Program-made: the position numbers and the translations under genes
Part shown: positions 43,696-59,177 of the stretch, piece by piece
Position numbering within the stretch: position 1 is the stretch's first letter
Layout: each line of letters opens with the position of its first letter
DNA from: Escherichia phage vB_EcoM_DE16
Direction: 5' to 3' (one strand)
DNA: 64,000 nucleotides
Sequence record: OP595145.1
Notes under the pieces: model-generated
What the model was told of the DNA's origin: nothing
The model's input: only the letters and a program-made list of their open reading frames with translations
Databases searched by the model: none

Positions 43696-44097
43696 TTAGT
43701 ATTGCTCGCCACTAATACGTTCCTTAAGTTGTTTAATAGCTTCGATTGCATCTACATAAGAAGAGTTATACATGTGTTTCAGTGCCACTCGTATTAAAGG
43801 ATCTTTTGTGAAGAAATCAATAAGAAGCATAGCTTGATCATGTTTAGCTGCATTTGTCATAGATGGATAATTTTCACGAACCATATACGTGTTATTTTGC
43901 ATAAGGGTTCTTTCTAGTTCAATACAATGGATAGCTTTATCTAGGTTAATCTGACGTTCACCTTTAATACGTGTTGCGTATTTTGCCAATTTGCAAAAAC
44001 AAGGTGTGCCACCAACCAAATAAGCTAGTTCAATAGGTTGCATTGCCATTTTTGTGTAGTGATCACCGTCAACCTGATTATCAAAAGCATTAGACAT
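43696..44097 (-). CDS. hypothetical protein (133 aa)
   Basis: ORF in co-directional block. Confidence 0.5.
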   Translation of the reverse strand: MSNAFDNQVDGDHYTKMAMQPIELAYLVGGTPCFCKLAKYATRIKGERQINLDKAIHCIELERTLMQNNTYMVRENYPSMTNAAKHDQAMLLIDFFTKDPLIRVALKHMYNSSYVDAIEAIKQLKERISGEQY

Positions 44098-44353
44098 AAT
44101 TTTCCTCCTGAATTCCTACTGCACCTTCTTCTGGGTAGTCTGCATAATAAGCTACCCTACCTTGATAGATAATATCACCATCGTCATTGTAGATCGCTGT
44201 ATCTTCTTGAATTGTTATTTCAACATCAAGCAAATCTGGGTCTTTCTCGATAGTATAGTTCAAACCTAACATTTCAAACAGTTCGAAAATTTCGTTACCT
44301 GTTAATGTAATGCTCATATTTCCTCCTTTTATTGTGGTTAGCAGAGTATACAC
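44090..44353 (-). CDS. hypothetical protein (87 aa)
   Basis: ORF in co-directional block. Confidence 0.5.
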   Translation of the reverse strand: MYTLLTTIKGGNMSITLTGNEIFELFEMLGLNYTIEKDPDLLDVEITIQEDTAIYNDDGDIIYQGRVAYYADYPEEGAVGIQEENYV

Positions 44354-44403
44354 TAATATAAAATTTTTGTCAATAAAAAAGGGAGCAATAAGCTCCCTGA
44401 TTA

Positions 44404-45363
44404 TTAGATTCCAATGATAGTTGCTGCTCGTTTATCCTTGGATCTGGTGTTTGCTCTACTACGTGACAAACCTCCGCAAGATTCACAACGAATAATATCG
44501 AAAGAACTTACCGCAGTGTGGTATTGTTTACCAGTAACAACGTGAACGTGATCACTGCCACAACGAGAACAACGGACCTTCTCATCTGGGTAATAAGCGG
44601 ATAAGTTAGGATGCTGTGGAATCCACGGAAGGATTTTCATATACAAATCACGGAGTGAAACAACATCGCCATCATTGTAAATCTGCATACGTTCAAAAGC
44701 ATCACGATCACCTTCACAACATGCTTTCCATAAAGGGAACCCCTCGTTATCCAGTTTTTCACTTTCTGTTTCGAAATATGCTCCCATTTCTTTAAGGGAG
44801 TTGGAAGGAAGTGCAAATTGTTTCTTAGCTGCCTTCAATGTATCAACAACTACATAATTAGAAGGAGGAGCCATATCGTGATATGCAAATCGTTGGTTAA
44901 TGTATGCACGGTCAAACTTATACCCGTTGTGTGCCACAACTACATCTGCCTCATTCAGAAGGTTCCAAAGATCTTGGCAAAGCTCCCAATCATCTGTATG
45001 ATCAATATCAAAAAGAGGATAAGAAGACAAATTCTTACCTTCCACTTCACCAGTATACAGATCAGCAGAAGAATAAGATAACAAATAACCTCTGCGAATT
45101 ACCTGGTCTGGAGAAATGAAGGCTTTGAATCGACGGAAAGTATATGCAATCTCTGGTGCAGTTTCAACATCAATAATTTTAATAACTGGTTGTTTCTTTT
45201 TAACTGATTCTTGTTTACTTCCACTGAAACGTGCAAGGAAATCATTCACTGTGCTTTTTCTTGTTGGGCTACCTAAAACAATTGCTGCAATATTGCGAGA
45301 AGACATACCCTCTGCACTCATACTAAGGATATCTGCTTTCTGCTCTTCTGTTAATCTGCTCAC
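44404..45363 (-). CDS. DnaQ-like DEDD 3-prime-5-prime exonuclease with N-terminal HTH-like region and C-terminal Cys cluster
   Basis: IDVETA (Exo I), VAHNGYKFD (Exo II), YNDGDV (Exo III); CSRCG ... CESCG. Confidence 0.65.
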   Translation of the reverse strand: MSRLTEEQKADILSMSAEGMSSRNIAAIVLGSPTRKSTVNDFLARFSGSKQESVKKKQPVIKIIDVETAPEIAYTFRRFKAFISPDQVIRRGYLLSYSSADLYTGEVEGKNLSSYPLFDIDHTDDWELCQDLWNLLNEADVVVAHNGYKFDRAYINQRFAYHDMAPPSNYVVVDTLKAAKKQFALPSNSLKEMGAYFETESEKLDNEGFPLWKACCEGDRDAFERMQIYNDGDVVSLRDLYMKILPWIPQHPNLSAYYPDEKVRCSRCGSDHVHVVTGKQYHTAVSSFDIIRCESCGGLSRSRANTRSKDKRAATIIGI

Positions 45364-46049
45364 TCTGCCTCCTGTTGTGAGATGTATGACTGAAGCATAC
45401 TCTCAAATGTTGTATCGTCATTATCCCAGCGTTTCATGTATACCAACTGGAAAATTGTTTCTATCCATTCATCTGTTGTCATATGGACTTCTTCTCCATC
45501 CCAAGAAGTAAAATTAACACCATCTGGGAACCACGAGTAGTAAGTATCTTTAACTGTTTGGAAAAGCTCTGCTTGAGTTTTACAAGCTGAAAGAAGATTA
45601 AAACAAGTAATATCTCCAAACTTAATATCAAAATCTTGATAGGGTCGGATACTATCTGTTTTATCTCCCATTAGCATCTGATATGCTAACCAGTAACTGC
45701 CCCAACCTTTAACTTCTTTCTTTTTACCTTTATCTACGATCCATATATCGCCAATAGATTCATCAATAAGAATTATATCTGGATTTTTAAAGACTCCATC
45801 TTCTTTGTAGAAATTAAAAAGAATACTAGGAGTATGTAAACTATCTTTATCTATAGATACCACGATATAAGAAAATTTACCCGTCCTTTTATAATCTTTA
45901 TAACCTTGGAAACCATATTTCTCTAACTCATCATCAGCTTCTATTACAGTAACAACATCACCATTGTGGAACTCCACAAGATAATCTTTGGTTTCTGAAA
46001 GCTGAAGTGGTTTGATATCTAATCGTTCAGATTTATATTCTACAGGCAT
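45360..46049 (-). CDS. P-loop NTPase; annotated portion begins at first ATG but coding-like frame continues ~440 nt upstream without a start codon
   Basis: Walker A GVIGVGKT lies upstream of the first ATG; Walker B-like DIILIDES inside ORF. Confidence 0.45.
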   Translation of the reverse strand: MPVEYKSERLDIKPLQLSETKDYLVEFHNGDVVTVIEADDELEKYGFQGYKDYKRTGKFSYIVVSIDKDSLHTPSILFNFYKEDGVFKNPDIILIDESIGDIWIVDKGKKKEVKGWGSYWLAYQMLMGDKTDSIRPYQDFDIKFGDITCFNLLSACKTQAELFQTVKDTYYSWFPDGVNFTSWDGEEVHMTTDEWIETIFQLVYMKRWDNDDTTFESMLQSYISQQEAE

Positions 46050-46490
46050 TTTGAAGGCGTGTCTGAAAGTTTTTCCTACGCCAATAACTCCGCAATATTT
46101 TTCTAAACGTAGATGTTTTAGAATACCTAAGACTTTTGTTTTAGCTGCTTGGAAGGTGTGTCCGATATCTTCTGGCGGGTATTGCTTATCAATGATTTCG
46201 AACTCTTCCTTTGTGAAGGGACGTTTGTTTTTGGAGGCTCTTTCTGCATTTGTATCTCCTAGCCAACCTCCAATTTTAGTCTTGCTTTTACCCCAAAACT
46301 CTGTCTTATTTTTAAATTCCTTTTGAGCACCTGAAGGGATGTGCTTCGCAATGATTGTTCTTTTCTCTAATGCAGACGCTGCTTGGAAAGCAATCTGATC
46401 ATAATCAATTGCAGCTATTGTTTCTTCGTTGACATATAAATGAAGATCTTCAGGTTTAATTAAAATATAACCGCTAATATTTCCCCCTAA

Positions 46491-46700
46491 TTATTCATCG
46501 TCATCCTCTGTTGAGAATGTTTTAGTATACGGACATTGACGACTTTTCGGGATTGCTATAACTTCATCTTGGTTAGCGTTAGAATAGTAGCAATATTTTG
46601 TGTTGCCATTAACTTCAGAATCAGACAAGATTAAAGTAATTTGACCTGCTGCTACTGTGAAACTAAAAGCTAAAAGAACGACTGTCAGAATCTTTTTCAT
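46491..46700 (-). CDS. small secreted protein with signal peptide (69 aa)
   Basis: MKKILTVVLLAFSFTVAAGQ N-terminus; its TAA is in frame with the downstream P-loop frame. Confidence 0.5.
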   Translation of the reverse strand: MKKILTVVLLAFSFTVAAGQITLILSDSEVNGNTKYCYYSNANQDEVIAIPKSRQCPYTKTFSTEDDDE

Positions 46701-46772
46701 AACGCCTCCTAAAAAGCCTACCTCATTAAGTAGGTAGGCATAATATCATAACTAATCCCGCAAGTCAAGAAC

Positions 46773-47651
46773 TTATTTAAGGATTGTTGCTTTGGTTAAA
46801 TCTTCCATCAGACCTCGAATCTCATTGAAGCACAGAAGGACTGAAGCTTCAATACTACCTTCTTCGTCTGCAAAATATTTCGGAAAACGTAGTTTAGAAA
46901 GTTTAAACTCTTTATCCACTACAAAATCTACAACACCGTCATATTCAAGACCGATTGCAACCACATCTTTACCATCTTCTTTTAGTTCGACAGCTTTAGA
47001 CTCGTATAGGGATTCTTTACTCCAAACAACAACGCCCTCGCTATCCTCCATTTTGATATAATTTCCGAGAGTAATACGATCTGCTTCGTGATTCTCCAGC
47101 AATTCACCAAAACCTTTTACAATAGCTTCTTCGTGCACACTAAAACCTACCGAAGGGAAAGTCCCCAGAACGGAACGGAGGAAAGAAGTAATCTCTTCTG
47201 CAACCTTTTTACTTCCATTAAGAACATAAAGAAGATTCGTAGTTTTATCCAAGACAACATAGTTAAAGAAATCTTCAGGTTCTGTTTCAGGCAATAGTGC
47301 AAATTCAATATCTTCCTTCATTGCTTTGACTACTTCTTTATCGACATAAAACTCTTTACCTTCGCTCTCCATATCCTGACGCATTTCTTCTAGACGTTCA
47401 TTCAGAATGCGTTTAACTTTCTTTTTATCTACCTTCTTCACAGATTGACCTACATTAAGCAGTTCAAGATCTGAAAACTCTTTTACAAATTTAGAATCAT
47501 CTTCGAAACGAACAAGACCGATAGTATGTGACTGGGAGCCTTCTGCTGTTACAAATTCCAGAGGAATATCTGTAATGCTGTTAAGGGATGCTACAGAAGC
47601 ATTGTCACCAACAACCATAGGCAGAGCGGATTTAAAAGATTTTACAAACAT
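46773..47651 (-). CDS. hypothetical acidic protein (292 aa)
   Basis: ORF in co-directional block. Confidence 0.55.
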   Translation of the reverse strand: MFVKSFKSALPMVVGDNASVASLNSITDIPLEFVTAEGSQSHTIGLVRFEDDSKFVKEFSDLELLNVGQSVKKVDKKKVKRILNERLEEMRQDMESEGKEFYVDKEVVKAMKEDIEFALLPETEPEDFFNYVVLDKTTNLLYVLNGSKKVAEEITSFLRSVLGTFPSVGFSVHEEAIVKGFGELLENHEADRITLGNYIKMEDSEGVVVWSKESLYESKAVELKEDGKDVVAIGLEYDGVVDFVVDKEFKLSKLRFPKYFADEEGSIEASVLLCFNEIRGLMEDLTKATILK

Positions 47652-47707
47652 GTTTCCTCCTATTTAATACATCTCACATTACCGCCCGTAAAGGGCGGCT
47701 TACTACA

Positions 47708-48433
47708 TTACTTATTAATAATACCTGCAATATTAGGTTTGACAAAGGTCGATGGTTTCATGATCTTACCTTTATCATCAAAGAACACATACACTTTCTG
47801 TTTTTCATTATAAACAGCATGAACACCAGTGTATGCCCCTTCTGGACGATTGGCATTTCGTTCTTCAATTGCAGCGCATTCTTGTGCAATGGCTGAATCG
47901 ATATCTGAAGTTTTCCAAGTTTTCAGCAACTGTTGTTTAGTTGGATACTTGGAATCATTACTTTTCAATACCTCTTTAATAACTTTCTTTTCTGGATATT
48001 TTGAACGGATTAGAGTGTCACGAGACATACGCATAATACCCGCAGCCATTAGCGCCATTTGAACTGGCTCTGTAAATGTTTGTTCCAAAGCATCGAAATC
48101 GGTATACACAGTTGGAGTAAAAACATCGCCTACAGCATAGTCCAAGAAATTCATCGTATGTTCTTCACCAAAGAACATGTAAGTCAGATAACTGGATACT
48201 ACAAAAATATCCGCTGCTGCATCCAAGAGTTCTACATGATCGTTTACTTTCGCGGCTGTTTCATACTCTTTAAGCTCTTCACGAACGAACCCGATTTGAG
48301 ACATAAATAGCTCTTGAGTGAATTCAGGTTGTTCACCACCTCGTGCTTTGGCATTCCAATCAATCACGTGCTTCGCGGCATTTTTGAAAAATTCAGTATC
48401 GAACTTAATATCTTTAAAAAAATTCTCGATCAT
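47708..48433 (-). CDS. MazG-like nucleotide pyrophosphohydrolase domain protein
   Basis: EELKEYE ... ELLDAAADIF resembles MazG/HisE E-x2-E ... E-x3-D metal-binding helix pair. Confidence 0.4.
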   Translation of the reverse strand: MIENFFKDIKFDTEFFKNAAKHVIDWNAKARGGEQPEFTQELFMSQIGFVREELKEYETAAKVNDHVELLDAAADIFVVSSYLTYMFFGEEHTMNFLDYAVGDVFTPTVYTDFDALEQTFTEPVQMALMAAGIMRMSRDTLIRSKYPEKKVIKEVLKSNDSKYPTKQQLLKTWKTSDIDSAIAQECAAIEERNANRPEGAYTGVHAVYNEKQKVYVFFDDKGKIMKPSTFVKPNIAGIINK

Positions 48434-57065: not shown

Positions 57066-57140
57066 GGCCCTGTAGCTCAATGGGAGAGCTGTCGGCTCAT
57101 AACCGATAGGTAGCTGGATCGAAACCAGCCAGGGCCACCA
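57066..57140 (+). tRNA. tRNA-Met/Ile2 (anticodon CAT)
   Basis: full cloverleaf: acceptor GGCCCTG/CAGGGCC, loop CTCATAA, encoded CCA; resembles lysidine-type Ile tRNA. Confidence 0.8.
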
Positions 57141-59098: not shown

Positions 59099-59177
59099 AG
59101 CGGGATAGAGGAGTCTGGTCGTCCTCGCCAGTTTCATATGCTGGAGATCATTGGTTCAAATCCAATTCCCGCCTCCA
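59099..59177 (+). tRNA. tRNA-Met (anticodon CAT), 1-72 mismatch
   Basis: D-stem GAGG/CCTC, anticodon arm CCAGT-TTCATAT-GCTGG, T-arm ATTGG-TTCAAAT-CCAAT, CCA; A1 opposite C72. Confidence 0.65.

Follow-up and report, generated by a model that had tools for sequence, protein, structure and literature searches.

The 64,000-nucleotide stretch of Escherichia phage vB_EcoM_DE16 analysed here (record OP595145.1; hereafter the window) carries on its minus strand a gene for a 5'-3' exonuclease of the FEN family, the translation of which very probably begins at an ATT codon. Sixty-four phage records match the region, with identities of 95-99.8%, and nearly all are Phapecoctavirus (phAPEC8/ESCO5-like, subfamily Stephanstirmvirinae); Escherichia phage EF1-1 is the closest match. 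The gene lies in a minus-strand replication and recombination block which contains, in order, a MazG-like pyrophosphohydrolase, an RdgC-like protein (PF04381), an open reading frame (ORF) of 69 amino acids, the exonuclease gene and a DEDD-type exonuclease. The main features are as follows.

45360-46478, minus strand: 372-codon gene (plus TGA) for a T7 gene 6-like 5'-3' exonuclease of the FEN family, identified by homology, fold and the ratio of the proportions of nonsynonymous and synonymous differences (pN/pS)
46476-46478, minus strand: ATT, the proposed initiation codon (AUU in the mRNA), identified by aligned starts, spacing from the Shine-Dalgarno (SD) sequence and the record of phage ESCO13
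46482-46488, minus strand: SD sequence AGGGGGA, with a GGGGG core that ends 4 nucleotides before the ATT; read directly and conserved in relatives
46398-46406, minus strand: codons for Asp25-Tyr26-Asp27 (IDYD), the first active-site carboxylates, in the unannotated part of the gene; from conservation and the structural model
46068-46091, minus strand: GVIGVGKT, a literal Walker A look-alike on a FEN strand-loop (Taq 'VVFDAKAPSFRH'); from profile alignment and homologues
46047-46049, minus strand: ATG (Met144), the first canonical start and the one used by most annotations; no SD sequence ahead of it

The frame that ends at the TGA at 45362-45360 can be translated in the window through 376 sense codons back to the preceding stop. 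Its first ATG, GTG or TTG is the ATG at 46049-46047, which is codon 148. An earlier note on this DNA, made from the sequence alone, had pointed to some 146 start-free codons upstream of this ATG; this is borne out, with 147 codons counted on the minus strand. ATG, GTG and TTG together account for 5.4% of the in-frame codons in the long ORFs of the window, and with the window's codon usage the probability of 146 consecutive codons without any of them is approximately 3e-4. In the remainder of the gene, 9 of 229 codons are ATG, GTG or TTG. No second start-free case was found among the long frames of the 64-kb window, except for antisense shadows. The earlier note was also right that a single in-frame TAA divides this frame from the 69-amino-acid ORF, but placed it one codon off, at 46488-46490; the triplet there is TTA (Leu) on the minus strand and reads TAA only on the plus strand. 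The stop that opens the frame is the TAA at 46493-46491 (minus strand), which is the same-frame terminator of the 69-amino-acid ORF (46700-46491).

The 372-residue product is a FEN-family 5'-3' exonuclease, kin to T7 gene 6, T5 D15 and E. coli ExoIX. The family phrog_107 ('exonuclease') matches residues 13-370 of the full frame (E=1e-55), and the unannotated first 146 residues alone suffice for a match (E=5e-7). The 84 homologues found by database search are mostly 340-380 amino acids long and span 90-99% of the query; only distant homologues carry the 5'-3' exonuclease N-terminal domain PF02739. A PDB sequence search with the single window protein found nothing. Alignment by hhalign with the T7 gene 6 exonuclease gives 95% probability, and the motifs of the family profile line up one by one with those of the Taq polymerase 5' nuclease (E=0.08); the pairings are GVLGGG-KTFRH..YKsnR with VVFDAKaPSFRH..YKAGR, IEADD with YEADD, SiDKD with TADKD, and GDktDN with GDESDN.

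Structure prediction gives the same answer. The AlphaFold2 model has a mean pLDDT (predicted local distance difference test) score of 95.5 across all 372 residues, and together with the Foldseek comparison it displays a PIN-like alpha/beta nuclease fold. The 13 best Foldseek matches in the PDB are all of FEN type (ExoIX, the T5 D15 flap endonuclease, M. smegmatis Pol1), and the top matches have probabilities of 0.93-1.00 and E values of 4e-5 to 4e-3. T7 gene 6, T5 D15, ExoIX and the Pol I 5' nuclease share with the window protein this fold and the motifs IDxD, FRH..YK..R, IEADD, S-DKD and GDxxD. The window protein differs in being approximately 100 amino acids longer than T5 FEN or ExoIX, and the TM-score on query length is approximately 0.4. 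The other FEN family members considered use, as far as is known, ordinary starts.

The N-terminal 143 codons encode part of the nuclease fold and are subject to purifying selection at the protein level. Residues D25, R139, Y148, K149, E180, D182, D183, D210, K211, D212, D272 and D275 are invariant in 36 homologues, and D27 is conserved in at least 90% of them; Asp25 and Asp27 are found at the end of a predicted strand (residues 16-25 in the AlphaFold2 model). Across clade members the first 143 codons have a pN of 0.16-0.34 against a saturated pS of 0.64-0.85, and for codons 2-143 pN/pS is 0.2-0.4. These proportions are given instead of dN/dS because synonymous sites are saturated in most pairs. 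Protein conservation of the upstream part extends to relatives of 30% identity. The ortholog comparison which the earlier note had proposed therefore favours the long protein: the N-terminal part is conserved, and a short protein that starts at the ATG is not supported.

In the window, the junction between the two genes reads TAA TTA GGG GGA AAT ATT AGC GGT TAT. The ATT at 46478-46476 sits 12 nucleotides past the stop of the 69-amino-acid ORF, four codons after it. The N-terminal region was aligned with DNA of relatives from viral contigs, metagenome contigs, named phage records and one Logan contig. These include a Stephanstirmvirinae-like clade of 29 distinct coding sequences (CDSs; 52-100% identity), drawn from Phapecoctavirus, Justusliebigvirus, Citrobacter phage Tr1, a Klebsiella phage and uncultured relatives. 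At the aligned codon, all 29 have ATT, ATC or ATA (AUH in the mRNA, where H is A, C or U) and never ATG, GTG or TTG; all 29 also have GGAGG or GGGGG 4-5 nucleotides ahead of it. Divergent relatives retain ATT, ATC or ATA even though their synonymous sites are saturated.

Conservation brackets this codon on both sides. The short stretch from the stop to the ATT varies at the amino acid level (LGGN, IGGN, EDN, EDV, TVGGK, KGGS or nothing) but is conserved as an SD sequence, since it always spells GGAGG or GGGGG. Protein conservation (I/M-S-G-Y/F-I-..-P-E-D-L) with synonymous changes begins directly after the ATT. In four relatives (L008, L095, L096 and L099) an in-frame TAA lies directly 5' of the ATC, so no earlier in-frame start is possible; in another (L014) the gene has its first canonical start only at approximately codon 196. 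The rV5-like (Vequintavirinae-type) relatives, which are approximately 40% identical, have ATG, GTG or TTG at this aligned position with unchanged spacing, as in GGGGGAATA-TTG in relative L034 compared with GGGGGAAAT-ATT in the window. Relatives beyond the rV5-like clade use ATG.

No canonical start codon can give the conserved protein. Comparison of sequences indicates that 46478-45360 (minus strand) is very probably one gene for a 372-amino-acid exonuclease with translation starting at the ATT at 46478-46476; this codon is taken as the initiation codon because of the conservation that brackets it, its spacing from the SD sequence and its orthology to real starts. The locus has several of the marks of an AUU-class start: exclusion of a canonical start, an SD sequence at functional spacing and orthology to canonical starts. 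A scan of the 64-kb window for an SD sequence followed by AUH found no second gene with an AUH start. The earlier note had listed a non-canonical ATT or ATC start among its options, and this option is upheld by the ATT, ATC and ATA codons behind SD sequences throughout the clade; the site that it had in mind does not hold.

That site was an internal ATC or ATT behind 'AAGGAAGAG' near 46210. The string encodes a conserved protein segment (..PFTKEEFEII..), and a start behind it is rejected because the conserved N-terminal strand, Asp25 and Asp27 would be lost.

The number of in-frame ATG, GTG and TTG codons in the first 143 codons ranges from 0 to 7 in the AUH clade (mean approximately 2.6) and from 4 to 10 in the rV5-like relatives (mean approximately 7.9). 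This scarcity may reflect selection against competing internal starts, in a comparison that is confounded by phylogeny and base composition.

AUU, like AUC and AUA, is a near-cognate start read by initiator tRNA; here it would be placed by the strong GGGGG SD core 4 nucleotides upstream. In E. coli reporters AUU, AUC and AUA give 1-2% (range 0.02-3%) of the expression obtained with AUG (bioRxiv 10.1101/063800); in another context AUU is 6-8 fold below AUG and GUG (PMC3592434). Nutrient limitation and ppGpp particularly affect non-AUG starts (PMC5499595), against which initiation factor 3 (IF3) discriminates (PMC5499595; PMC2268962). Synthesis of the nuclease would thus be low, because AUH codons initiate at a few percent (or approximately 1/6-1/8) of AUG and are proofread by IF3. 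A weak AUU might in this way hold a potentially harmful nuclease at a low level, and might also tie its synthesis to the condition of the translation machinery and to ribosomes arriving from the upstream ORF, as in pcnB and infC.

These two genes are the only confirmed AUU-class starts in E. coli (bioRxiv 10.1101/063800). The closest functional analogy for a nuclease gene that keeps AUU is pcnB, which encodes poly(A) polymerase I (Binns & Masters 2002, as cited in PMC3592434 and bioRxiv 10.1101/063800). It differs in being a host gene and a single, species-level case; in the phage gene the codon varies between AUU, AUC and AUA across a subfamily, with a strong SD sequence and an adjacent upstream stop. 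The layout of infC, which encodes IF3, is alike: a stop, a short spacer with an SD sequence, and AUU (modelled junction UAA GGU AUU; PMC3592434). Initiation on infC is discriminated by IF3 (PMC3592434); since the factor that rejects AUU is its own product, infC regulates itself. The phage nuclease lacks a loop of this kind and would be only a passive reader of IF3 activity.

Whether the weak start serves a regulatory purpose is judged by analogy, and the chance that it does is put at somewhat under even. AUH codons are interchanged without recourse to ATG across a subfamily in which synonymous sites are saturated. Parsimony on a neighbour-joining tree requires at least five changes among T, C and A at the third position, with no change to G. 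GTG and TTG are frequent in the sister clade, and a third-position G never occurs among the AUH members; each observation is compatible with selection against strong initiation, although the statistics are weak. A more specific proposal is that the AUH start is selectively maintained as a control device, acting through IF3 proofreading, nutritional or ppGpp state and delivery of ribosomes from the upstream ORF. This is offered tentatively, as a possibility that is open to considerable doubt.

Several observations count against the interpretation given so far. AUH codons are inefficient initiators. RNA folding at the start has a minimum free energy no better than that of shuffled sequences (z=0.05); therefore, no structural switch supports the regulatory reading. 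The absence of G among five inferred changes has a probability of approximately 0.13 under equal rates and is only suggestive. The window protein has no Pfam match at E<=0.01. Finally, the Asp of the 'VFD' segment of FEN proteins (Taq D67 position) is replaced by Gly in both phAPEC8-like and rV5-like proteins. With Gly at this acidic position full catalytic competence does not appear certain; more distant relatives retain the Asp. The near-invariant second Asp of the N-terminal IDxD motif might compensate.

The window has a 10-tRNA cluster which includes two tRNA(CAU) genes (57066-57140 and 59099-59177, plus strand), and there is one tRNA-Ile(GAU) in the window. The second tRNA(CAU) is 79 nucleotides long with its anticodon at position 37 and, by eye, an A1xC72 mismatch. 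A special initiator tRNA encoded by the phage was considered but finds no support, as neither tRNA(CAU) has, by eye, the G:C triplet of the initiator anticodon stem. An Rfam search of 44000-48000 gave no meaningful matches.

The most durable alternative concerns the route by which ribosomes reach the AUU. The codon might be used mainly by termination-reinitiation, in which case exonuclease synthesis would be slaved to translation of the 69-amino-acid ORF; this is thought rather unlikely as the main route, and it refines rather than excludes the explanation by an ATT start. The geometry is that of a coupled pair: in every clade member the upstream stop is 8-18 nucleotides from the AUH codon, often inside the SD sequence (TAGGAGG), and a consensus scan found no terminator-like site between the 69-amino-acid ORF and the exonuclease gene. 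Some members have an extra in-frame stop directly adjoining the AUH codon. The upstream ORF has a strong start of its own (AGGAGG-N4-ATG). At the infC-type stop-SD-AUU junction, expression is approximately double the level seen with AUU in a single cistron, with about equal shares from reinitiation and from de novo initiation (PMC3592434). On the other hand, a strong SD sequence is conserved at a fixed spacing of 4-5 nucleotides, as de novo initiation requires. The same stop-SD layout accompanies canonical starts in the rV5-like clade and is thus not specific to AUH. In addition, reinitiation, too, is lowered by overexpression of IF3 (PMC2268962).

Most of the Phapecoctavirus records inspected annotate a protein of 229 amino acids that starts at the ATG at 46049, which implies that the upstream 143 codons are an untranslated remnant. 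This ATG is the first canonical start, but the model is highly improbable. It leaves out a region that is conserved as protein in distant relatives, has pN/pS of 0.2-0.4 and contains the invariant Asp25 and Arg139 as well as two central strands. There is no SD sequence before the ATG, and relatives do not keep this Met as a start; the codon is probably not used. According to the AlphaFold2 model and residue conservation, a product that starts at Met144 is without strands 16-25 and 127-137, Asp25, Asp27 and Arg139. Without two core strands and the first aspartates, the 229-residue protein cannot be the functional enzyme.

The truncated model is widespread. Of 60 Phapecoctavirus records listed, 58 have no exonuclease CDS over the first 149 nucleotides of the gene, and 6 of these 58 are unannotated. 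Only ESCO13, in its GenBank and RefSeq copies, covers these nucleotides with an exonuclease CDS (gp105, YP_009786567.1; KX552041 / NC_047770). It is the same gene, annotated with the same ATT start and a ribosome-binding site feature. The ESCO13 genome announcement (PMC5374246) is silent on the ATT start, and in ESCO5, a sister record from the same authors, the ATT start is not annotated. ESCO13 apart, every annotated Phapecoctavirus record inspected has the 229-residue stump, or a 183-residue one in the case of WPEC1. The Justusliebigvirus records arall and W22 start at a GTG 28 codons in and so lose the first 28 codons.

In other records the first part of the gene is covered by spurious small ORFs (WPEC1, ETEC-TG), with one further downstream in BI-EHEC; such ORFs, of 30-40 amino acids, are put in by gap-filling gene callers. 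The small ORFs of the window that overlap the unannotated part of the gene are listed here; those on the minus strand are out of frame with the exonuclease.

46012-46326, plus strand: small ORF overlapping the exonuclease gene
46127-46249, minus strand: small ORF of 40 amino acids overlapping the exonuclease gene
46259-46351, minus strand: small ORF of 30 amino acids overlapping the exonuclease gene

The 40- and 30-residue ORFs match 'hypothetical protein' CDSs of 123 and 93 nucleotides in BI-EHEC, WPEC1 and ETEC-TG. Lying within a conserved coding frame, these small ORFs are almost certainly spurious.

Two of these records have peculiarities of their own. BI-EHEC (L089, OL505078) has seven instead of five G residues in the SD homopolymer. 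In WPEC1 (L090, PV659873; a 161-kb record) the exonuclease frame is cut short by a stop after 325 codons, and a tail gene comes next. Both are likely to be sequencing or assembly oddities.

A further explanation is recoding, which the earlier note had also raised: the exonuclease would be fused to the signal-peptide ORF by readthrough of the TAA at 46493-46491. In the window the two ORFs do share one frame and are split by a single TAA, and one database protein of 444 amino acids (P0005) resembles such a fusion. The arrangement is not general, however. The upstream ORF is in a different frame in several relatives (L004, L005/L084 and L086, which include the Justusliebigvirus group and Tr1), and in others (L008, L009, L016, L095, L096 and L099) is separated from the exonuclease by two in-frame stops. 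A Sec signal peptide on a replication nuclease would be functionally senseless. P0005 is encoded at 1501-2835 of Logan contig SRR30397360_28145 (L087), where an ORF of the 69-amino-acid type and the exonuclease are joined and the junction has a TAG; since the gene caller read this TAG as sense, the fusion is a gene-calling artefact. The switch of genetic code by the caller is probably due to an exonuclease gene without a canonical start. Readthrough is scarcely credible on this evidence.

The earlier note took the product for a P-loop NTPase with a Walker A motif. The string GVIGVGKT is indeed encoded upstream of the ATG, at 46091-46068, and fits GxxxxGK[ST] literally; it is not a conserved Walker A motif, the literal match being confined to the window. 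It occupies the "VFD...FRH...YK..R" segment of the family. Its counterparts in homologues include GAIGKGET, GVLGGSGN and LVFDGEDN, and the K and T are not conserved (GET, GPT, SGN, EDN). Sequence searches of Pfam and the PDB gave no P-loop matches, and no P-loop protein is among the significant Foldseek structures. The string is a coincidence, because it lies on a core FEN strand-loop and its Lys and Thr are replaced in relatives. The P-loop identification was abandoned because the family alignment and the fold search gave a FEN nuclease, and it can be discounted almost completely.

A base-call error or a fresh mutation that removed a normal start in one genome has nothing but the oddity itself in its favour and is virtually out of the question: the region is at least 95% identical in all 64 matching phage records, the first 149 nucleotides of the gene are at least 98.7% identical in all 60 records listed, divergent relatives keep the AUH codon, and the TAA that the earlier note suspected of being a recent nonsense mutation is where a separate conserved gene (phrog_4641) normally ends.

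The exonuclease gene is flanked by the following features.

46491-46700, minus strand: ORF of 69 amino acids with a signal-peptide-like N-terminus (phrog_4641), with its own start (AGGAGG-N4-ATG) and its own stop (TAA, 46493-46491)
46716-46768, minus strand: promoter-like site TTGACT-17-TATTAT with TG, then a GC-rich hairpin and a T-run; from a consensus scan only
44404-45363, minus strand: gene for a DEDD-type 'DNA polymerase exonuclease subunit', downstream of the exonuclease gene (PF13482)

Public records annotate the 69-amino-acid ORF as a separate hypothetical protein. Upstream of it, the sigma70-like site at 46716-46768 is followed by a hairpin (GCCTACCT..AGGTAGGC) with a T-run and then by the SD sequence and ATG of the ORF. 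Judged by sequence, the rdgC-like gene and the 69-amino-acid ORF seem to be separated by a promoter/terminator-like pair, which could possibly be the start of a transcription unit with the ORF and the exonuclease gene. At the other end, the GTG start of the DEDD-type gene overlaps the TGA of the exonuclease gene (GTGA, 45360-45363, minus strand); this is a classical coupling overlap.

A search of the literature on the start of this gene, on phage ATT/AUU starts and on start codons in Stephanstirmvirinae found nothing specific. The ATT start is already in one public record (ESCO13); its conservation across the clade was not found described in any paper. Confirmed AUU-class starts are very rare, and clade-wide conservation together with interchange of all three AUH codons is unusual among natural starts of this class.

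The corrected gene model gives the right protein for studies of structure, function and defence or anti-defence in phages that are candidates for therapy. Interchange of AUU, AUC and AUA in one clade, against ATG, GTG and TTG in its sister, is a clean natural experiment on weak start codons. Conservation of AUH hints at selection on nuclease dosage. If the start is indeed maintained as a control device, the gene would be a phage counterpart of the infC and pcnB logic, and would allow the three AUH initiators to be studied side by side in nature, within a single conserved context.

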